Virus record (IMG/VR): IMGVR_UViG_3300037462_000153
Location: 1 to 46,081 of that record
Length of the DNA stretch: 46,081 bases
Reading direction: 5' to 3' (one strand)
Source of the DNA: a virus
Taxonomy: Duplodnaviria; Caudoviricetes
Part shown: piece after piece, positions 2,317 to 45,980 of the stretch
Numbering within the stretch: position 1 is the first letter of the stretch
How the letters are laid out: every line of letters starts with the position of its first letter
Program-made: the position numbers and the translations under genes
Notes under the pieces: generated by a model
Databases searched by the model: none
What the model saw: only the letters and a program-made list of their open reading frames with translations
What the model was told of the DNA's origin: nothing

Positions 2317-3278
2317 CTACTCTGGTTTGACGGGTGGGTCAACGCGCCGGGCTTTGCCGTTCTTCACGCGCAAGCTCACGGCCCCGTCAGACAGCCCAAG
2401 CGCCCGCGCCATTTCGCGTTGCGACGCATAAACAATGCCGGTTTCCAGATCCTCGACACCCCGGCGGCATTTCTCTGCAGCTAACGCGGCCATGCGCTGA
2501 CAGTTCCGCCGGTTTTCGTCGGACGCGCGCCACCCATCCAAGGCTTTCCGGTTTGTTGCGATGTTGTCGGGGTTTGCGGCCCATGCGTCGTACCCACGCC
2601 GAGCGCTTGCTTTTCCTTCTGGAGTGGCGAGATATGCGCGATTTTTCTCGCGTTGCGCTTGCTTACCGGCATCACTGCGTGGGTCCGGCCGCCCGGTATG
2701 TATGCGGCTCAAGTGCTGGCGAACCTCGGGCGTCATCTGCGCTTTAGTTTTTGCGCTCATGTGGTCCCGCATGCCGGGTTTTGCCCATCTACGCTTAGAC
2801 TGTTCGGAGCGAATTTCCCGCCCACCAGCGTCCAGCCATTCACGATAGGCTGCGATCGTTTCAGCCGCGGGCGCACGCCCCTTTAGTGCTTTAGATAGTT
2901 TGGCGTTGCGCTCTGGATTAGCCCATACCTTTTCCGTCATGACGACGTGAACTCTCGACCCTTTAGGCGCGTGCATTCCTCCCCCGCCCTCGGTCAAATT
3001 ATACCCCTTTGCGGGGTTCAGGGCGTCAAAAAGATCAATTGCCGCGCGTTCCGCAACCGCGCATTCTTCGCGATTTCCATGCTCGGAAATTACGTGAAAT
3101 CGAGGCTCGCCATGTTTGCGCCAGGCTCGGTAAACCGGCAAATCCTTGCCCTTCTTAGCGTCCCGGCGGTGGTTAAGAAAACGCGCTGTGTACAGGCCCT
3201 TCGCGTCTGTCCGGCTCATGCCGACGTAAAATTTTTCGTTCGGAAAACCAGTAGGTACACAAAGAAAATTTGACGCAT
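2317..3278 (-). mobile_element. Free-standing GIY-YIG homing endonuclease gene with a frameshift near its 5' end
   Basis: ATG 3278 reads MRQIFFVYLLVF; the -1 frame reads PNEKFYVGMS...KGYNLTEGG; NUMOD3-like repeats and C-terminal HTH (YASQREMARALGLS). Confidence 0.75.
2327..2342 (-). promoter_or_regulatory. TTGAC-N6-GTCAA palindrome / promoter
   Basis: TTGACGGGTGGGTCAA; minus strand reads TTGACC-17-TAGGTT. Confidence 0.6.
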
Positions 3279-3313
3279 GAAAAAGCTCCCCAAGTTAATG
3301 ACCTGGGGAGCTT
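3279..3313 (-). terminator. Intrinsic terminator-like hairpin after the capsid gene that also sequesters the endonuclease RBS
   Basis: AAGCUCCCCAGGU-CAUUA-ACUUGGGGAGCUU followed by UUUC-AUG. Confidence 0.7.
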
Positions 3314-3351
3314 AACACCCCTTGCGGGGCTTGTCTATTTAATTCTATTTT

Positions 3352-4485
3352 TCAGATGCCGGAGTATCTGACGATTGCCCACGGACGCTTGAGCATGACG
3401 CCCGCAAGCGCGTTGGTGTAATCCTCAACGTACGACTTGGCGCGCTGTTCCACGCCGAGCGACTGCATTTTGGCCGGTACGATCTGGTCGAACGTACGAC
3501 CGCCGTCGCTCGAGCCGTCCGGCACGCTGTCGGCGTAGAGATAGAAGACCGCCGCGCCGCCGTTGGCCGCGTTCAGTTCCGGCGCCGTGACCACCCGCAG
3601 ATTGGGGTAGGTCTGCCGCATCCAATCGCGCACCGAGATGCCGAAATCGGACGTAACCGTGAGGTACTGCGCGCGGTTGGTCGCGAGGCCCATGGTCATG
3701 GCCGTGCGTTCCGGGTCGATGTTGTCGCCGGACTGCGTCTGCAGGGCCGCAACGGCGGTGCGGATATCAGCCGTGATCTGCAAGAACGTCTTCGTGCTCC
3801 AGAGGGTCGACGAGCCGGTTCCGGTGGCTGCAACAGTGACGTATGCCGGCAGGTTCGGGTCGTTCAGGAAACCGAACGTACGGCCCGCGCCGCTGATATA
3901 ACCATAGAAGCCGACGCGATTGCGCAGGATTTCCAGAGCAACAGCAACCGCGGCGCGTTTCTCGGCTGGGCTGTTGATGTTCGGAATACGCGACGTGCGG
4001 GCTTCCTCGAGACGGCCAACGTTGAGGCCGAGCTCAAAGCGGACGACGGTGCGCCGCTCAAAGCTGTTGTTCCAGGACGCCAGCGGAATGTTGTTGGCGT
4101 CGCCGTACGGCTGCGGGTTGCCGGTCGGCTCCAGAACCTGCTGGACGACTTCTTCGTCTTCCCACGAACCGCCCACGGTCATGCCGATCAGTTCGTCAAT
4201 GCGACGGGCGGCGGTGATCGTGCGGACCAGACCGGGCAACCAGTTCTGCAGGAACTGTGCCGGCGTGGAAATCGTACCGGGCTGAATGGTCGGCGTGAGG
4301 GTGTTGGCGTCCATAGCCATGCCGACGGCGCGGGCCATATCGGCAACGTCACGCGGCGAAAGGTTGATGCCGAGGTCGGCAAGCGCCGCGAAGTCCTCGA
4401 CCTGGTCGGCGGCCATGACGAACGGCCCCCGGATCATGGTAGAGGCCGCGAAGTGCTGCCGGATTTGGGTTACGGATTTCGACAT
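3352..4485 (-). CDS. Major capsid protein (DUF2184-like)
   Basis: 377 aa; NRVGFYG, GFLNDPNLP and AGVMLKRPWAIVRYSGI motifs; follows the protease and decoration genes. Confidence 0.9.
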   Translation of the reverse strand: MSKSVTQIRQHFAASTMIRGPFVMAADQVEDFAALADLGINLSPRDVADMARAVGMAMDANTLTPTIQPGTISTPAQFLQNWLPGLVRTITAARRIDELIGMTVGGSWEDEEVVQQVLEPTGNPQPYGDANNIPLASWNNSFERRTVVRFELGLNVGRLEEARTSRIPNINSPAEKRAAVAVALEILRNRVGFYGYISGAGRTFGFLNDPNLPAYVTVAATGTGSSTLWSTKTFLQITADIRTAVAALQTQSGDNIDPERTAMTMGLATNRAQYLTVTSDFGISVRDWMRQTYPNLRVVTAPELNAANGGAAVFYLYADSVPDGSSDGGRTFDQIVPAKMQSLGVEQRAKSYVEDYTNALAGVMLKRPWAIVRYSGI

Positions 4486-14386: not shown

Positions 14387-16810
14387 ATGGACTTCCGCAC
14401 GTCCCCGCTTGCCCCCCTGACACTCTATCCGCAATGGGTCGCCTGGCGCATTGAGCCCACCATACGCAACGGCGTCGAGGTGCCCGCCAAGATGCCGTAC
14501 AGCCCCATCCACGGCGGCAAAGCCAGCAGCACCAATCCGGCAGAATGGTCCAGCTATGACGACGCCGTCAAATACGCCTCGGCAACTGGCATGGGCGTGG
14601 GGTTTGTCTTCACCTCGTCGGACCCGTTCTTTTTCCTCGACGTGGACAAGGCGCTGCACGCTGGCCAATGGTCACAGCTTGCACAAGAGCTTTGCGCCCG
14701 GTTCGCGGGCGCAGCGGTCGAGGTGTCCCAATCAGGCACCGGCCTGCACATTATCGGCATGTATTCCGCGCAGCCCGAGCACCGGAAGAAAAACGTTCCG
14801 CTTGGCCTTGAACTCTACACGCAGGAGCGTTTCGTAGCGCTGACCGGCACCAACGCCATGGGCGACGCCTCGGCCCTCATGGACGACCCGCTGGCGGCTG
14901 CGGTAGCGCAATACTTCGACCCGCTCAAGGTGGCGGCCGGCGCACCGCTGGACTGGACGACCGAGCCGGTGGCCGAGTGGTCGGGGCCTGACGATGACAG
15001 CGAGTTGCTTGCACGTGCCATGCGATCGGAACCGGCGGCCAGTGCTGCGGCTGCGTTCGGTGACGGGGCGGCGCCTGTACGGTTCAGCGACCTATGGACG
15101 GCGAACGCCGAGGTGCTGGCGGCGCGCTACCCGGGCAACGGTGCGGGCGGTTATGACGCGTCGAGTGCTGACCAGGCGTTGGCCAATGCGCTGGCCTTCT
15201 GGACCGGCAAGAACTGCGAACGCATAGAGCGCATGATGCGGGCGAGCTCGCTCACGCGCGACAAGTGGGACGACCGGCCCGAGTGGCTGGCGGATACCAT
15301 TATGAACGCCGTTCGGTTCGTTAAAGGCGTGTACGCCGCACCGGCCACGGCAGCGCGTCCAATCGCGCCACCGGCCGAGGTTACGCCGGGTATTCACGCA
15401 GGCCACCCGGATCTGCTTGGGCGGGTAATCTTCAACCATGACCTGCCGATGCTGTTTGACGGGTATGTGTTCGTGCATGGCGTCGACAAGATCATGACGC
15501 GCGACGGGCGACTACTCGGCAAGGCGGGCTTTGACGCCGAACACAACGGCCCGGTATGGAACCCGGCGATTGACGGGCGCCGCAAGACAACGAGCGCGTG
15601 GGAAGCCCTCATGACCAACGAGGCGTACCGGCTGCCCATTGTGGACGGCATGTGTTTCAGGCCGGAACAACCTGACGACCGGATAATTGAGGAGGGTCGG
15701 CGAAACCTGCTCAACATGTACGTGCGGCCCAAGCTGTCACTTGTGGACGGTGACCCGTCAAAGTTCCTCACGCATATGCGCCGCATGCTGCCGGTCGGCG
15801 ATGACCTGGAGATATTGCTTTCATACTTTGCCGACTGCGCACAAAACCCGGGCGTCAAGGTGCAGTGGTGGCCGGTGCTGGTCGGCGCAGGCGGTTCATT
15901 CAAGACCACGTGGGTGACGATCATGCGACACGCGCTCGGTAGCGAATATGTCCACGAGGTCAACACGCGCAAGCTGGTGGCGGGCAGCAGCAACTTTAAC
16001 GGCTGGATAGAGAACAAGCTGTTTATCGCGCTTGACGAGGTGTACGGCCGGGACCGCCGGGAATTCCTCGAGGGCTTCAAACCCACTGTGACCAACCGCA
16101 CGATTGACATTGAAGCCAAGGGCAAAGAGCAGGTGACGGGTGACAACCGGGCGAACGGGTTGTTCACGTCAAACGACCAGGCGGGATTGCCGATCCTTGA
16201 GGGGGAACGTCGGTATGCGCCATTTTTCTATGCGTACCAGGAAACCCAAAAAATGTGGGCGGCGGGTATGGATAGCAGGTATTTGGGTGATCTTTATAGC
16301 TGGTTTGCCGGCACGGACGCATATGCCGAGCTTGGCCGGGATTATGGTTTCCGGGTCATGGCGCATTATTTGCACACTCGCGCACTGTCATCGGCTTACG
16401 ATCGGGTTAAGGCGCCTGAAACATCGAGCACGCTAGCGGCGATCAAAGCCGGGTTGGGTCGCGCCGAACAGGAAGTGATTGAGGCGATCGAAGAGGGCCA
16501 GCCGGGCTTTGCAGGCGGGTGGGTATCCTCGACAAAGCTGGACGACCTGTTGACCCGCAAGCGCATGAACGTACCGCCGAACAAGCGCCGCGACATGATG
16601 AAGTCCATAGGTTACGACTGGCACCCGGCCCTAGCGAACGGCCGGGTAAACAATGTCGTGTCGCCCGACAACAACAAGCCCCGGCTATATTGCAAGGTCG
16701 GGTCGATCGCCTGGAGCAACTTGACAGACGCGGCGGCGGTGGCGGCGGCGTACAGCAAGGCGCAAAGCGTGGGACTGGAAGAGACGACGCGGAGCCAATT
16801 CAATGGTTGA
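14387..16810 (+). CDS. NrS-1-like primase-polymerase fused to a helical bundle and SF3-type helicase
   Basis: FLDVDK, EVSQSGTGLHI and ELYTQERFVALTG (prim-pol); SSADQALANALAFWTG (helical bundle); Walker A GAGGSFKT and IALDE; GAGG RBS before ATG 14387. Confidence 0.88.
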   Translation: MDFRTSPLAPLTLYPQWVAWRIEPTIRNGVEVPAKMPYSPIHGGKASSTNPAEWSSYDDAVKYASATGMGVGFVFTSSDPFFFLDVDKALHAGQWSQLAQELCARFAGAAVEVSQSGTGLHIIGMYSAQPEHRKKNVPLGLELYTQERFVALTGTNAMGDASALMDDPLAAAVAQYFDPLKVAAGAPLDWTTEPVAEWSGPDDDSELLARAMRSEPAASAAAAFGDGAAPVRFSDLWTANAEVLAARYPGNGAGGYDASSADQALANALAFWTGKNCERIERMMRASSLTRDKWDDRPEWLADTIMNAVRFVKGVYAAPATAARPIAPPAEVTPGIHAGHPDLLGRVIFNHDLPMLFDGYVFVHGVDKIMTRDGRLLGKAGFDAEHNGPVWNPAIDGRRKTTSAWEALMTNEAYRLPIVDGMCFRPEQPDDRIIEEGRRNLLNMYVRPKLSLVDGDPSKFLTHMRRMLPVGDDLEILLSYFADCAQNPGVKVQWWPVLVGAGGSFKTTWVTIMRHALGSEYVHEVNTRKLVAGSSNFNGWIENKLFIALDEVYGRDRREFLEGFKPTVTNRTIDIEAKGKEQVTGDNRANGLFTSNDQAGLPILEGERRYAPFFYAYQETQKMWAAGMDSRYLGDLYSWFAGTDAYAELGRDYGFRVMAHYLHTRALSSAYDRVKAPETSSTLAAIKAGLGRAEQEVIEAIEEGQPGFAGGWVSSTKLDDLLTRKRMNVPPNKRRDMMKSIGYDWHPALANGRVNNVVSPDNNKPRLYCKVGSIAWSNLTDAAAVAAAYSKAQSVGLEETTRSQFNG

Positions 16811-17552
16811 GGCCGTCCAATTCCGAACCGGGGTGTTCTTCCTTGGCGATTGCTTCGACGTCATGGCCACGCTGCCTGCCGGTATGGTCGACATGGTTCT
16901 GTGCGACCTGCCGTATGGGGCGACGCAGAACAAGTGGGATAGTGTCTTGCCGCTCGGGCCGTTGTGGGGCGAGTATTGGCGGCTGCTCAAGTCGAACGGC
17001 CCGGCGGTGTTGACCGCAGCGCAACCGTTCACAACGGTGCTTGGAGCTAGTTGCGTTGAGCGGCTGCGGTATTCCCTCATATGGGACAAGGTGCGGCCGG
17101 TCGGCCATCTGAACGCAAAAATCCGCCCGATGCAAAGACACGAAGACGTTTTGATTTTTGCTCGGGAAAAAGAAACTTATAACCCGCAAGGATTGGTGTA
17201 CGCTCCCAAGGTCAATAAACGCACCACCAGCGGGGACAACTACGGCAAAGCCGGGAAAGAAAATCTATCCGAATATACAGGATACCCGCAAAGCATTTTG
17301 AAATATGAAAGCGCGCAGACTGGCAAATTTCACCCAACCCAAAAGCCCGTCGCGCTCTTCGAATACCTGATACGCACCTACACCAACCCCGGCGAGCTCG
17401 TACTAGACAACACCGCTGGCAGCGGCACCACCGCCGTGGCCGCCATTCAATCCGGCCGGTCCTGGATCTGCATTGAGCGCGACCCCGAGTACTTCGCAAA
17501 GGCATGTGTGCGGGTCGCGGAAGCCGAGGCATTGACACCCGCCAACCCCTAA
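16803..17552 (+). CDS. Orphan beta-class amino (m6A/m4C) DNA methyltransferase
   Basis: DLPY (motif IV) precedes HPTQKPV and VLDNTAGSGTT (motif I). Confidence 0.9.
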   Translation: MVEAVQFRTGVFFLGDCFDVMATLPAGMVDMVLCDLPYGATQNKWDSVLPLGPLWGEYWRLLKSNGPAVLTAAQPFTTVLGASCVERLRYSLIWDKVRPVGHLNAKIRPMQRHEDVLIFAREKETYNPQGLVYAPKVNKRTTSGDNYGKAGKENLSEYTGYPQSILKYESAQTGKFHPTQKPVALFEYLIRTYTNPGELVLDNTAGSGTTAVAAIQSGRSWICIERDPEYFAKACVRVAEAEALTPANP

Positions 17553-20623: not shown

Positions 20624-21758
20624 GTAGGTCACCCAACGCGGCCCTTAGGAACTCTTCCGCCGCTTGGGCAACGATTGCATTGCCGTAACCGCGCAGTCGT
20701 CCCACACGGGCGGCAGCCCCATTAACCAGCGGGAATGTCCCGGGCATAACTGGCCGCCACTTTCCATCCCGGCAGAAGAGCCAATCAGCATCTCGCCAGT
20801 GGCCGTTAGTCGGGCCGGTTCCTTGCCAGTCAACAGCGCCGCACACTCCAAACTCACTTGCTTGCCGTTCGCTACTCGGCGTTCCGCCGCTTCCGTTGTG
20901 GAGTACCGCCATTTCGCATCCTCCGCTCCCGTTGTCGGCCACCCCGCCAAGTTGGCCTGTCTCGGCAACTGGTCGAACCTCTCCGATCCATCCGCCCTCG
21001 GCTTGATGTCCGCCCCGCTGTCCTTCCAGTCCCGTGTGGTGGTGGTGGTCCAGCCCGCCAGTGCCGCATCCGCCGGTAACGCCCCGCCCGCTTGGTTCGG
21101 GCCGCCATTGCTGCCGTCCGTCGCTCGGGGTGTGTTCCATGTGGCTAACTGCACATGGTCGTTCAAATTCTGCATCCCGTGGCCCTGCGCTTTCTTGGCC
21201 GCTATGTATTCCGGGGAGTGCGCCGGGAAATGGTCCCGGGCTTGCGGCGTCGGCCAACCGGATGGCAACCCACCAGAGCCTTTGTCTGATATGGGGCGCG
21301 CCGACGCCCGCAGCGCATAGATCGACCGCCGCGACGGCATAGCCCGAAGCTTCCAAGTCAGTTTGTACAACTTCGAACCAAGCAAGGCCGTCCTTGCTTG
21401 CAACCTGCTCACCAACGATGACGTCAGGCCGACACTGTTGGATAAGGTGGAGGCCGAGGGGCCACAAATGCCGCTCGTCAGCAAACCCAAGTCCCTTGCC
21501 TGCCGCGCTGAAAGGTTGGCAGGGGAAAGACGCGCTCCAAATTCGGCGATCGTCAGACCACCCAATATTTCGTAGCGCGTAGCTCCAGACGCCAATCCCG
21601 GCGCACAGGTGGACTTGTGTATATCGTGCAACGTCATGGGGTAGCAGATCCTCTAGGGGTGTTTCGGTAACGTCGCCGGGCGCGATCTGGCCAGCTTTGA
21701 TAAGCTCGCGCAGCCACGCCGCAGCAAACGGGTCAATCTCGCAATAGAGGGCTGTCAC
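20604..21758 (-). CDS. C5-cytosine DNA methyltransferase, catalytic (alpha) polypeptide
   Basis: HLCAGIG (I), FPCQPFS (IV), GEQV (VI), PHIRQRLW (VIII), RLRGYGNAIV (X); motif IX absent in this frame. Confidence 0.88.
   Translation of the reverse strand: MTALYCEIDPFAAAWLRELIKAGQIAPGDVTETPLEDLLPHDVARYTQVHLCAGIGVWSYALRNIGWSDDRRIWSASFPCQPFSAAGKGLGFADERHLWPLGLHLIQQCRPDVIVGEQVASKDGLAWFEVVQTDLEASGYAVAAVDLCAAGVGAPHIRQRLWWVAIRLADAASPGPFPGALPGIHSGQESAGPRDAEFERPCAVSHMEHTPSDGRQQWRPEPSGRGVTGGCGTGGLDHHHHTGLEGQRGGHQAEGGWIGEVRPVAETGQLGGVADNGSGGCEMAVLHNGSGGTPSSERQASEFGVCGAVDWQGTGPTNGHWRDADWLFCRDGKWRPVMPGTFPLVNGAAARVGRLRGYGNAIVAQAAEEFLRAALGDLLDAPVS
20645..21637 (-). CDS. Alternative-frame (beta) polypeptide of the C5-MTase with TRD-like repeats and motif IX
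   Basis: Nested 330-codon frame; W-x-T repeats; GQLCPGHSRWLMGLP; probable TTG start near 21484 behind AAGGGA. Confidence 0.7.
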   Translation of the reverse strand: MTLHDIHKSTCAPGLASGATRYEILGGLTIAEFGARLSPANLSARQARDLGLLTSGICGPSASTLSNSVGLTSSLVSRLQARTALLGSKLYKLTWKLRAMPSRRSIYALRASARPISDKGSGGLPSGWPTPQARDHFPAHSPEYIAAKKAQGHGMQNLNDHVQLATWNTPRATDGSNGGPNQAGGALPADAALAGWTTTTTRDWKDSGADIKPRADGSERFDQLPRQANLAGWPTTGAEDAKWRYSTTEAAERRVANGKQVSLECAALLTGKEPARLTATGEMLIGSSAGMESGGQLCPGHSRWLMGLPPVWDDCAVTAMQSLPKRRKSS

Positions 21759-29349: not shown

Positions 29350-29429
29350 ATCGGCAGCGCGCCTCTCATCCCCGCCCGCGCTGCCCGATGACGGCCCGCC
29401 GACCTCCTCCCCGGCGGGCCGTTTTATTT
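29350..29429 (+). ncRNA. Two-hairpin element with a CCUCCUCCC loop (cuckoo/CcsR-like); second hairpin doubles as terminator
   Basis: 9-bp stem with loop CCUCUCAUCCCCGCC; 11-bp perfect stem with loop ACCUCCUCCC, then UUUAUUU. Confidence 0.5.
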
Positions 29430-29453
29430 CAAGCACAAGGCAAGGTTGGCACC

Positions 29454-32400
29454 ATGTGGGCAATTGAGACGCACGGCACTATAGATTTCGAAACCTACAG
29501 CGAAGCCGGCCACGAGTGGGACGACGCGGCGGGCACGTGGCGCGCACCGCCTGGAGCGACCAAGAAAGGCATTGCTGCCGTCGGGTCGGTCGCCTACGCC
29601 GAGCACCCAAGCACGGAAGTGCTCACAATGTCGTACCGGCTCCCCGGCGGCGCGTTGCGACGCTGGCGGCCCGGCCTGCCCAATCCTCAAGACCTGTTCG
29701 ACTACCTCGCCTCGGGCGGTCTGATCGAAGCGCACAACGCCATGTTTGAGCGCGCGATATGGCACTACGTATGCAGGCGGCTTTACGGTTGGCCCGAGCT
29801 TCCGGCCGCTCAGTTGCGGTGCAGCATGGCAAAGGCCCACGTGAACAACCTGCCCGGCGCGCTCGGCAATCTCACGGACGTGTTGCCCGTCAAGATCAAA
29901 AAGAACCCCGACGGCAAGCGGTTGCTCAACAAATTCAGCGTGCCGCAAAAACCGACCAAAGCCAAGCCGGTGACGCGGATCCGCCCCGAGGATGACCCGG
30001 AAGACGCCGAACGGCTCTATGCATACTGCGACGTCGACGTGGAAGCCGAGGAAGAGGCCAGCGCGCTCATGATGCCGCTGTCTCTCAACGAGTTGCGCTT
30101 TTGGTTGCTCGACCAGCGTATGAACTGGCGAGGGATCGGCGTGGATCGGCCGGGCGTGCGCAACATGATCGCGGTGCTCGAGCAAGCGCAGGACAAATAC
30201 GGCACGCGCTGCCGGGAAATTACCGGCGGTTTCGGCCCCGGCCAGGTCAAAGAGTTGCGCGGGTGGCTGGCGGCGCGCGGCATATATCTCGACAGCATGG
30301 ACGCCGAGGCGGTCGAAACGGGATTGGCCACGCTGGGCATTACCGACGAGTGCAAGGGAGTGCTGCGCATTCGTCAGCTGGTCGGATCCGCCAGCGTCAA
30401 AAAGCTCTACGCGTTCGAACGATCGGCCAACACTGACGACCGCGTGCGCAACGTCATCACACACCACGGCGCGCGGACGGGGCGGCCGACGGGCGAACTA
30501 GTGCAGCCACTCAATCTCCCCAAGTCCGGCCCCGACCTGTTCTATTGCGGGTGCGGAAAGCCTCACGCGCGCCGCGACGTTTGCCCGTGGTGCGGCGTCC
30601 CAGTCGCGCCGGGGTCCAAGTCCTACAAGTGGCCGGACGTACCCAAGGGTTACGCCGACAACCCCGTGGACCATGTGCAAACGATCATGGCCACACGATC
30701 GCTCGACGCCGTGGAATGGTTCTTTGGTGACGCGCTGTTGAGCATATCCGGCTGTGTCCGTGGAATGATCGTGGCCGGGCCGGGGTACGACCTGGTTGCG
30801 TCGGACTACTCGGCAATTGAAGCCGTGGTTACGGCAGCGCTGTCCGGCTGCGAATGGCGCGTGCAGACCTTTCGAGAGAACCGAGATATCTATCTCATGT
30901 CGGCCGCGCAACGCCCCGGCGGTCTGACCTATGAGGAATATCAGGCGTACAAGGAAGAGAACGGCGCGCATCATTGGCACCGTCAAAAGTGGGGCAAGGT
31001 TTTCGAGCTTGCGTGTCTCGGCCCCCGAACCCAAGTGTTGACCGACAAAGGTTACTTGGCTATTGTGGATGTTACGACAGATCACAAGGTATGGGACGGT
31101 ATTGAATGGGTGCGGCACGAGGGGTTGGTAAAAAGGGGTACAAAAACGGTGTTAAACCTGGATGGTCTCCAGATAACCCCGGACCATTTGGTCAGTTTGA
31201 ACGGTTCGTGGAAGGCGGCGAACGAACTCGCTTCCGACGATCGCTTGTTGACCCAAGCGCTGGTGAGCGGTTTGGAAGCCTTGTTGCGTCTGGAGCAATC
31301 GAACGGCGGGGCAACGGCCAATATGTCGCGGAAGTCCAGTGCGACTGTGGCGCGACCGCGCATTGGGTGGCGGTTCATAACCTCCGCAACGGCAAGTCTA
31401 CTCGGTGCAATCCGTGCGCTAAGAAAGCGACCGCAGCGTACCGTAAGCAGTATTTTTGTTACGCCGGCGCGCTACCAGATGACGAACACCGTAGGCGGCT
31501 GCTCAACCGACTTTCTGCGGCCATTGGACGTTGCCACAATCCAAAATCAAAAGGGTTTGGCAACTACGGCGGGCGCGGGATCCGAGTGTGTGAAGAGTGG
31601 CGCGGCGACAAGGCCGCGTTTCTTCGACACGCCCATACTTTGCCGGGGTGGGACGTCCCGGCTCTTGAAATGGATCGGCGAGACACGAACGGCCACTATG
31701 AGCCTGGAAATATTAGGTTCGTTTCCAAAGTGGCCAACTCTCTCAACAAACGGAAGATCGGCGACCGGCAGGCCCTCGTCGACTACTACGAGCAGTGTCT
31801 ACGATCTTGCAAATGCGGGGCCGCGCCACCGTTTCACTGTGAAAACTAATAGCGGCCACTTGGTTGTCCATAACTGCGGATTTGGCGGTTGGGTGGGTGC
31901 CGTCCGTGTTTTTGATACCGAGACGCCGGACGATGAAGTTAAGGCCGGTATTCTCGCATGGCGCGCAGCCTCTCCCGAGATCGTCGAAATGTGGGGCGGC
32001 CAGGCGCGGGGCAAGCCGTGGATGCGTGACTATCGGTTGGAGCGGTTCGGCTTCGAAGGCGCGTTCGTCAACGCCGTGCAGTACCCGGGCCATGCGTTTA
32101 CGAGCAACGGCATAATCTTCTATACTCGGGGCGACGCGTTGATTATCCGGCTGCTGTCCGGTCGCGAGCTCACCTATCACAGCCCACGCCTATGGCCCAA
32201 AGCCGACGAACCGGGCGTGTTCAAAATCACTTACATGACTTGGAACAGCAACCCCAAGTACGGCCCGACCGGGTGGGTTGCGATGGAAACCTACGCTGGC
32301 CGCATTGCTGAAAACATTGTCCAGGCCACCGCGCACGATATCCAGCGGTTCGGGATCGAAGCACTCGAGGCGGCCGGTTATGGCGTGGTGCTGCATGTCT

Positions 32401-32546
32401 ATGACGAGAACGTGGCCGAGGTGCCGCACGGGTTCGGGTCAATCGAAGAGTTTGAGGCGATCATGTCCACGATGCCGCCATGGGCCGCCGGCTGGCCGGT
32501 GAGGGCGTCCGGCGGCTGGCGAGGCCGCCGGTATAGGAAAGGTTAA
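29454..32546 (+). CDS. Family A DNA polymerase, intein-containing
   Basis: Exonuclease motifs IDFET, AHNAMFER and YCDVDV; motif A SDYSAIE; motif B KVFELA/CGFGG split by the intein; motif C HVYDE. Confidence 0.93.
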   Translation: MWAIETHGTIDFETYSEAGHEWDDAAGTWRAPPGATKKGIAAVGSVAYAEHPSTEVLTMSYRLPGGALRRWRPGLPNPQDLFDYLASGGLIEAHNAMFERAIWHYVCRRLYGWPELPAAQLRCSMAKAHVNNLPGALGNLTDVLPVKIKKNPDGKRLLNKFSVPQKPTKAKPVTRIRPEDDPEDAERLYAYCDVDVEAEEEASALMMPLSLNELRFWLLDQRMNWRGIGVDRPGVRNMIAVLEQAQDKYGTRCREITGGFGPGQVKELRGWLAARGIYLDSMDAEAVETGLATLGITDECKGVLRIRQLVGSASVKKLYAFERSANTDDRVRNVITHHGARTGRPTGELVQPLNLPKSGPDLFYCGCGKPHARRDVCPWCGVPVAPGSKSYKWPDVPKGYADNPVDHVQTIMATRSLDAVEWFFGDALLSISGCVRGMIVAGPGYDLVASDYSAIEAVVTAALSGCEWRVQTFRENRDIYLMSAAQRPGGLTYEEYQAYKEENGAHHWHRQKWGKVFELACLGPRTQVLTDKGYLAIVDVTTDHKVWDGIEWVRHEGLVKRGTKTVLNLDGLQITPDHLVSLNGSWKAANELASDDRLLTQALVSGLEALLRLEQSNGGATANMSRKSSATVARPRIGWRFITSATASLLGAIRALRKRPQRTVSSIFVTPARYQMTNTVGGCSTDFLRPLDVATIQNQKGLATTAGAGSECVKSGAATRPRFFDTPILCRGGTSRLLKWIGETRTATMSLEILGSFPKWPTLSTNGRSATGRPSSTTTSSVYDLANAGPRHRFTVKTNSGHLVVHNCGFGGWVGAVRVFDTETPDDEVKAGILAWRAASPEIVEMWGGQARGKPWMRDYRLERFGFEGAFVNAVQYPGHAFTSNGIIFYTRGDALIIRLLSGRELTYHSPRLWPKADEPGVFKITYMTWNSNPKYGPTGWVAMETYAGRIAENIVQATAHDIQRFGIEALEAAGYGVVLHVYDENVAEVPHGFGSIEEFEAIMSTMPPWAAGWPVRASGGWRGRRYRKG
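31014..31874 (+). mobile_element. Intein (287 aa) in PolA motif B
   Basis: Starts CLGPRTQVLT; block B ITPDH; block F VYDL; ends VVHN followed by +1 Cys. Confidence 0.92.
31106..31849 (+). CDS. HNH-type homing endonuclease nested out of frame inside the intein
   Basis: GERFGSL, CDCG, RCHNP...NYGGRGIRVCEEW and MDRRDTNGHYEPGNIRF...NSLNKR; true start uncertain. Confidence 0.85.
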   Translation: MGAARGVGKKGYKNGVKPGWSPDNPGPFGQFERFVEGGERTRFRRSLVDPSAGERFGSLVASGAIERRGNGQYVAEVQCDCGATAHWVAVHNLRNGKSTRCNPCAKKATAAYRKQYFCYAGALPDDEHRRRLLNRLSAAIGRCHNPKSKGFGNYGGRGIRVCEEWRGDKAAFLRHAHTLPGWDVPALEMDRRDTNGHYEPGNIRFVSKVANSLNKRKIGDRQALVDYYEQCLRSCKCGAAPPFHCEN

Positions 32547-45938: not shown

Positions 45939-45980
45939 AACGGCCCGCATGATAGCGGGCCGGGGGGTGCGGGGCAAGTG
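45939..45980 (-). promoter_or_regulatory. Hairpin-embedded promoter/terminator element, copy 2
   Basis: AACGGCCCGCATGATAGCGGGCCG identical to 1738-1761; TTGCCC-17-TATCAT. Confidence 0.6.

Follow-up and report, generated by a model that had tools for sequence, protein, structure and literature searches.

A conserved second gene in the -1 frame of a phage DNA polymerase intein, likely self-expressed and likely a homing nuclease

The genome of a tailed phage (IMG/VR virus record IMGVR_UViG_3300037462_000153, Caudoviricetes; "the window" below is this whole stretch of 46,081 nucleotides) encodes a family A DNA polymerase (PolA) interrupted by an intein (31014..31874, + strand), and within the DNA of this intein lies a second open reading frame (ORF), shifted by one base into the -1 frame (31106..31849, + strand). 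Taking all the evidence together, we consider it probable that this is a second conserved gene of the polymerase intein, likely self-expressed and likely coding for a homing nuclease. A bolder version, on which our judgement is evenly balanced, is that the splicing-domain codons would form a full expression cassette (sigma70 promoter, ribosome-binding site and ATG) for a PacI-like, tyrosine-type homing nuclease; the same 861 bases would then hold a self-splicing protein and an independently transcribed gene, and the elements would belong to a large, overlooked, histidine-free family repeatedly retargeted among neighbouring codons of polymerase motif B.

Splicing domain and nested reading frame

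The intein (287 aa) is inserted between KVFELA and CGFGG of polymerase motif B, as defined by empty alleles, profile matches and invariant residues (C1, T55xxH58, D264 and H286-N287). The PolA frame is open across 31014-31874 and reads C1-L-G-P..., W27-D-G-I-E-W32, T55-P-D-H58, V262-Y-D264-L and H286-N287, then Cys+1; the complete splicing domain announced by the original prediction (C1, TPDH, VYDL, HN/C) is thus present in all its parts. C1, T55, H58, D264, H286 and N287 are invariant among 91 sequences, and the residues are those of class 1 inteins, namely Cys/Ser1, the TxxH of block B, the His-Asn of block G and Cys/Ser/Thr at +1. The in-frame insertion is missing from homologues, as is also the case for class 1 inteins. 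Indeed, the closest intein-free polymerases (L252 and L253; identity 73% in the N-extein and 77% in the C-extein) read KVAELA/LGFGG without interruption, the slash marking the insertion site here and below. A search with the C-extein retrieved 12 loci, 11 of them contiguous across the site and the twelfth (L263) matched in its distal part only, and a contig in run X3 spans the intein junction with 225 letters between. A profile built from the 91 intein-frame sequences matched solved inteins at E 2e-4 to 2e-3, among them 5oxw (the Neq polymerase intein, E 2.1e-4) and PI-MtuI (E 5.6e-4), and the Vint Hint domain was matched below cut-off in 15 of the 91. Searches of Pfam and NCBIfam returned no match for the intein frame and no family for the nested ORF.

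The insertion site lies in motif B, which forms the O-helix in family A polymerases; splicing is therefore likely to be required, and from this location and the conserved catalytic residues we infer that the PolA intein splices. The C-extein opens with Cys+1 (31875..31877, +); of 155 intein representatives, 144 have Cys and 11 have Ser at this position. Since empty alleles carry Leu, Ser or Phe there, homing would have to change the +1 codon too.

The two ends of the intein are modelled by AlphaFold2 with a pLDDT of 97-98, over residues 1-90 and 261-287. They correspond to an N-terminal splicing region, beta-rich then helical (residues 1 to about 100; 31014..31313, +), and to a C-terminal splicing region with blocks F and G (31785..31874, +). 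Residues 103-252 (31320..31769, +) form a filler rich in T, R, S, A and G, predicted to be disordered (pLDDT <50), in which stops are avoided. The nested ORF (247 aa, 744 nt, from ATG 31106 to the TAA at 31847-31849) does not extend beyond the intein; running from intein codon 31 to 279, it overlaps blocks B and F, just as originally described, and the +1 frame of the intein is full of stops. It matches PHROG 374, "HNH endonuclease", at E 3.7e-36. In the PolA exteins, neither alternative frame stays open for more than 87-146 codons.

This organization was followed through 252 loci (the window plus L001-L251, duplicates included), 232 of which have a complete intein and a nuclease match. The 20 loci left out comprise one without a nuclease match, five with intein ends in different frames (including phage SS3e), six partial ones and eight lacking an intein end (five cut by contig ends, two free-standing, one weak). 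Among the 232 complete loci, the nuclease frame is -1 in 194 and +1 in 38, the latter including L028, a mini-intein with a mere nuclease remnant; none has the canonical in-frame endonuclease between blocks B and F, and the intein frame is free of stops in all. Removal of near-copies left 122 representatives in the -1 frame and 33 in the +1 frame. The family takes in the Jerseyvirus, SO-1 and APSE polymerase inteins, and among the 194 phage records matched by a search with the intein frame, 145 belong to Salmonella phages.

Selection acts on both frames: the splicing domain is encoded by the two ends and the nuclease by the stretch between them, where PolA-frame stops are avoided. Across an alignment of 121 -1 inteins, wobble entropy peaks at the third intein codon position over nt 1-180, at position 2, which is the wobble position of the nuclease, over nt 271-765, and again at position 3 over nt 811-855. 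When the nuclease frame was shuffled synonymously, 4.6 intein-frame stops were expected for the window and none is seen; the mean expectation was 6.2 per sequence, and 120 sequences have none. Nine of ten free-standing relatives of the nuclease carry 5-23 stops in the corresponding frame, the tenth having none in 88 codons. The nuclease ORF extends over at least 225 codons from the conserved start in 189 of the 194 -1 loci. The exceptions are four loci whose first ten codons include a stop, with an in-frame Met after it in the sequences inspected, and L090, which has an internal stop. An open host frame joined to a nuclease ORF in another frame, each under its own selection, is the pattern by which a homing endonuclease lying out of frame is recognized.

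Several members of the family depart from this layout. In L218-L249 (+1 clade, Bacillota prophages), many nuclease ORFs run 22-31 bases past the intein end into the C-extein. L006 presents two intein-like inserts (1302-2300 and 2933-3775), each with a +1-frame nuclease, and in the upstream one a stop separates the two intein ends, which do not share a frame, an arrangement resembling a split intein. The record of Salmonella phage SS3e (L027) gives the polymerase as two coding sequences (CDSs) with an HNH gene between them; its intein region is frameshifted relative to its kin, through sequencing errors or in a broken allele. Finally, L008:2501-3460 is a +1-frame member in another host context (NKCLQF/C ... 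HN/CNGSPY), outside polymerase motif B.

PacI-type site, mobility and origin

The model of the nested protein (mean pLDDT 82) shows disordered residues 1-30, which are part of the overprinted region, then a four-cysteine domain, a nuclease core and a C-terminal helix. Alignment and model delimit at residues 45-111 (31238..31438, +) a predicted Zn-binding, SH3/Tudor-like DNA-binding domain with invariant C79, C81, C101 and C104. Its structural matches are weak and include the N-terminal domain of Hpy99I (Z 3.8), and the CapR-domain Pfam match occurs in only 2 of 46 members (E 0.001). The similarity between the nested protein and its free-standing relatives in other phages begins only at about residue 45-53.

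The original prediction presented the product as an HNH endonuclease. The PHROG 374 match bears out this affiliation, but the catalytic histidine that canonical HNH (His-Me finger) enzymes carry at the end of strand 1 is missing. Its place is taken in the predicted beta-beta-alpha-metal core (31448..31753, +; motif counts and structure search) by D190-R191, which stand where HNH enzymes have Asp-His, and the Arg is present in 122/122 -1 representatives. The pattern [DE]R-x6-Y-x12-N is found in all 122 of these and in 32 of the 33 +1 representatives, and D190, R191, Y198, N202 and N211 are invariant in 46/46 aligned proteins. The spacing of R191, Y198 and N211 equals that of R93, Y100 and N113 of PacI (Arg-x6-Tyr-x12-Asn). 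According to the available portions of the PacI literature, the site of that enzyme is H42-R93-Y100-N113, with Arg replacing the histidine (PMC3765158) and Tyr taking over its role (PMC5714182). Sequence searches of solved structures with the nuclease returned Zn-motif noise only and no PacI match. On the strength of its residues and their spacing, the nested nuclease likely works like PacI.

The element bears the usual marks of mobility, a patchy distribution and incongruence between intein and extein. In an extein tree of 46 rows, two empty alleles form the sister group of the window polymerase (support 100), and empty alleles are so scattered that 8 changes are needed, 5 of them forced by strong branches. 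The closest inteins are those of MR14, L116, L037 and L117 (64-73% identity in the splicing domain, 55-61% in the nuclease), whose exteins are only 52-55% identical to those of the window and whose inteins are inserted four codons upstream. The -1 family uses three neighbouring positions of motif B within five codons (GKx/C, GKVA/C and GKxxELA/C). A fourth site of the intein family, YGGKx/C, lies further downstream (examples across sites: L002, L036, L081, L025; window 31002-31013). Site labels are mixed on the splicing-domain tree, a quick version of 100 columns with 81 of 152 branches open, which suggests repeated short-range retargeting.

Concerning the origin of the nested gene, the original prediction had an HNH gene invading a mini-intein out of frame. 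The free-standing relatives agree with the invasion, but the mini-intein ancestor fares less well: the only mini-intein found, a 168-aa one at the same site in Streptococcus phage Javan422 (L028:2001-2504), keeps a 91-codon remnant of a +1-frame nuclease and looks derived, as a decay product would. This is one of two points in favour of another history, in which paired insertions and deletions (indels) shifted the nuclease of an ordinary in-frame intein into another frame, the -1 and +1 forms both stemming from one capture. The other is the nuclease tree, where the -1 clade and the +1 site-b clade each stand on one side of a branch (99 and 99) and join one another, weakly (SH-aLRT 86). We nevertheless find such slippage unlikely, as no intact in-frame form occurs among the 232 complete loci, and the tree places the nucleases of the +1 site-c group with free-standing genes around them (support 84-90). 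A weak test by a search for longer fused forms yielded one among 1201 candidates, by eye a tandem nuclease without intein. The nuclease tree is compatible with one capture or several; capture of free-standing genes, more than once, would be the likeliest origin, and a single capture followed by a change of frame is less probable.

The nested gene might also be expressed without being a homing nuclease, its product binding DNA without cutting it, or cutting the DNA of competitor phages or of the host. The general-base histidine is missing in all representatives, and nuclease-derived DNA-binding regulators such as CapR exist. Moreover, one PacI-like phage nuclease, of unchecked kinship to the nested family, showed no exclusion activity in the one assay given in the available part of its report (PMC12724721). 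We regard this function as rather improbable, given that the five residues at PacI catalytic spacing are invariant in all 46 aligned proteins and that the nuclease gene travels with the intein across unrelated polymerases.

Expression signals within the splicing-domain codons

Three sequence features that may bear on how the nested frame is read are written in codons of the splicing domain. A predicted sigma70-type promoter (TTGACC, 17 nt, TATTGT; 31038..31066, +) lies within intein codons 9-18, and promoter prediction shows it enriched by position: a sequence passing the promoter test lies at the same place (nt 25) in 52 of 122 -1 representatives, in none of the 32 from the +1 clade and in 2 of 488 control windows. 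The enrichment is borne by silent positions: the codon for Leu9 is TTG in 70/106, compared with 52/320 for other Leu codons, and the wobble base opening the -10 box (nt 48) is T at a frequency of 0.68, as against 0.27 in the background and 0.19 in the control clade. Further downstream, the conserved codons W27-D28-G29 form a Shine-Dalgarno-like GGGACGGT (31093..31100, +; GGGA) whose duplex with the anti-Shine-Dalgarno sequence is worth -7.7 kcal/mol; the mean is -6.95 kcal/mol in the -1 clade, -6.79 in the +1 control clade and -2.2 in the background. Finally, ATG 31106 takes its A from the wobble position of intein codon 31 (E31) and its TG from the codon of the invariant Trp32. It is ATG in 90 of 122 -1 representatives and in 7 of 32 of the +1 clade, which has the same motif but another nuclease frame, and where codon 31 encodes Ser it is TCA in 15/15 cases versus 25/125 elsewhere. 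The -1 frame meets a stop within 34 codons after this start in 3/122 -1 and 28/32 +1 representatives, and within the 30 codons before it in 94 of the 122 -1 representatives.

Separate translation from an internal start, ATG 31106 or GTG at about 31208, had been proposed at the outset in preference to frameshifting. The start-codon statistics and the want of a conserved slippery heptamer agree with this preference and favour the ATG; the Shine-Dalgarno score of GTG 31208 does not rise above background (-2.2 kcal/mol), and the codon at its position is GTG in 44, TTG in 42, ATG in 18 and CTG in 17 of 122 representatives; it might still serve as a minor start. The nested nuclease likely owes its expression to a promoter and start codon of its own inside the intein DNA. 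The same-strand -1 frame and an A-rich run at 31129-31145 could also be taken as hints of -1 ribosomal frameshifting, which would yield a nuclease fused to the N-extein and the intein N-terminus. This route is very improbable, as no frameshift signal is conserved (slippery heptamers occur in 22/122 representatives, at scattered positions), no RNA structure beyond that of shuffled sequences appears at either candidate start (z 0.22 and 0.62), and the frame opens at a selected ATG with a promoter upstream.

Two further explanations bear on the insert itself. The record of phage SO-1 carries the note "type I self-splicing intron", yet a group I intron removed from RNA is scarcely credible for an insert that is in frame and stop-free throughout the complete loci, has invariant intein catalytic residues and a +1 nucleophile in 155/155 representatives, matches solved inteins by profile and is annotated as an intein in other records. 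Two compensating assembly errors shifting an in-frame nuclease out of frame can be set aside, the same offset (ATG at intein nt 93) being found in cultured phage records and in more than 100 distinct contigs, and related contigs of other studies aligning over parts of the intein with substitutions and no gaps.

Several observations weigh against a self-expressed homing nuclease. The strict promoter test is passed by only those 52 of 122 representatives, which are relatives and not independent, so that shared ancestry inflates the promoter counts; the ATA codon of Ile17 is not enriched (48/105 versus 32/73). The Shine-Dalgarno signal is just as strong in the control clade; it has the look of a by-product that was already there and is no proof of use. 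Most loci were found through alignment of the nuclease, so that its open frame, unlike that of the intein, was partly selected for. A patchy distribution also fits repeated loss. In the structure search, PacI (3m7k) came fifth in a flat list with a weak match inside the noise band (Z 4.9, rmsd 3.0, 82 aligned, residues 115-216), and a Foldseek search of the nested protein against the PDB gave no match at E 0.001 or better. To these may be added the inactive PacI-like phage nuclease mentioned above.

With these reservations, the self-expressed homing nuclease that we favour could work as follows. The precursor would splice by the standard class 1 route (Cys1, TxxH, block F Asp, His-Asn, Cys+1), which would discard the disordered filler and restore motif B. 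Host sigma70 RNA polymerase would start near 31073 from the promoter in intein codons 9-18, and ribosomes would start at ATG 31106, using the GGGA already supplied by the W-D-G codons. The product would be a free protein of 247 aa with about 40 overprinted N-terminal residues, whose Zn-binding domain and PacI-type Arg/Tyr/Asn core would, in co-infected cells, cut or nick polymerase alleles lacking the intein, close to motif B, and repair would copy the intein together with the Cys+1 codon. Its origin, the least certain step, may have been the out-of-frame capture of a free-standing nuclease gene of the same family.

Genome setting and known systems

With its opening 100 bases repeated at 45955, the window represents an entire tailed-phage genome, and genes for terminase, portal, capsid, primase, helicase, exonuclease, SSB and the family A DNA polymerase were found. 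The PolA precursor (29388..32546, +) counts 1052 aa from the first ATG, but its true start may be ATG 29454 instead; it matches PHROG 17, DNA polymerase (E 4.7e-71), and PF00476 below cut-off (E 4.8e-06). Directly downstream of the major capsid gene lies a free-standing gene for a 300-aa homing endonuclease-like protein (2317-3219, -; PHROG 314, E 9e-16) with an I-TevI-like DNA-binding tail. This 46 kb phage also has two DNA methylase-like genes, N6/N4 (16803-17552, +) and C5 (20604-21758, -). The latter is overlapped by a second, 330-codon ORF on the same strand (20645-21637), without Pfam match, possibly a second dual-coded or frameshifted region.

The polymerase inteins of Jerseyvirus, SETP12, SO-1, EP23, MR14 and APSE are homologous to that of the window (26-42% identity in the intein frame and, for the -1 forms, 43-58% in the nuclease frame) and lie in the same motif B region. 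The annotation in their records covers either the intein ("encoding splicing domains") or the nested CDS, the latter accompanied by a note on an intron; the record of Sodalis phage SO-1 lists the nested CDS as an HNH endonuclease under such a note, and that of APSE-1 lists it as P46. No account of the overlap, the promoter or the PacI-type site of this family was met in the literature covered, a scope outside which lie subscription journals and bioRxiv supplements, those of Gosselin being liable to bear on the point; the overlap is not mentioned in the available portions of PMC5418858, PMC2248197, PMC8579659 and PMC8425127.

As far as their available text goes, three recent reports describe comparable layouts. 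Endonuclease VII-like nucleases were described in frame 3 of phage inteins, and capture of free-standing genes was proposed (Gosselin, 2025, preprint). As in the PolA case, a full-length intein holds a same-strand, out-of-frame beta-beta-alpha-metal nuclease and an unstructured in-frame filler. The nuclease family and the hosts differ, and the second ORF lies "typically" outside the splicing domain there, whereas the PolA ORF overlaps blocks B and F and draws its start, and likely its promoter, from splicing-domain codons. A cyanobacterial DnaX intein with a +2-frame LAGLIDADG endonuclease (Phillips, DeSimone, Gogarten, bioRxiv 10.64898/2026.09.14.751524) similarly combines overlapping splicing and homing frames, frame-specific selection, a putative Shine-Dalgarno sequence and a patchy distribution, but its nuclease is not of the PacI type, it sits in a cellular gene, and no internal promoter is described. 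The ShiLan domain (Arsenault et al., PMC11855218) is an out-of-frame HNH in a phage methylase, also a hidden HNH-type ORF under an open host frame, the translation of which was left open; unlike the PolA element, it has neither a splicing domain nor a detectable ribosome-binding site, and its host gene is non-essential.

The nested protein resembles PacI (3m7k), as documented in the available portions of PMC3765158, PMC5714182, PMC3384342 and PMC3996161, by an Arg in place of the HNH histidine, a Tyr seven residues on and an Asn thirteen after. It differs in showing only 17% identity in the aligned part and no invariant match to H42, and PacI is a dimeric restriction enzyme. The family points to a homing nuclease with the histidine-free chemistry of PacI. 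In about 190 phage records, many from phages used for Salmonella biocontrol, the intein is annotated as endonuclease-free; such inteins may nevertheless be mobile. Cultured coliphages carry the same element. The papers describing hidden nucleases left their expression open, and the present family offers a testable answer in the form of a promoter and a start codon drawn from silent intein positions. The layout of an out-of-frame intein endonuclease is already in print (2025-26); what the polymerase inteins add to it is a predicted promoter and a start codon embedded in splicing-domain codons, together with the PacI-type site.

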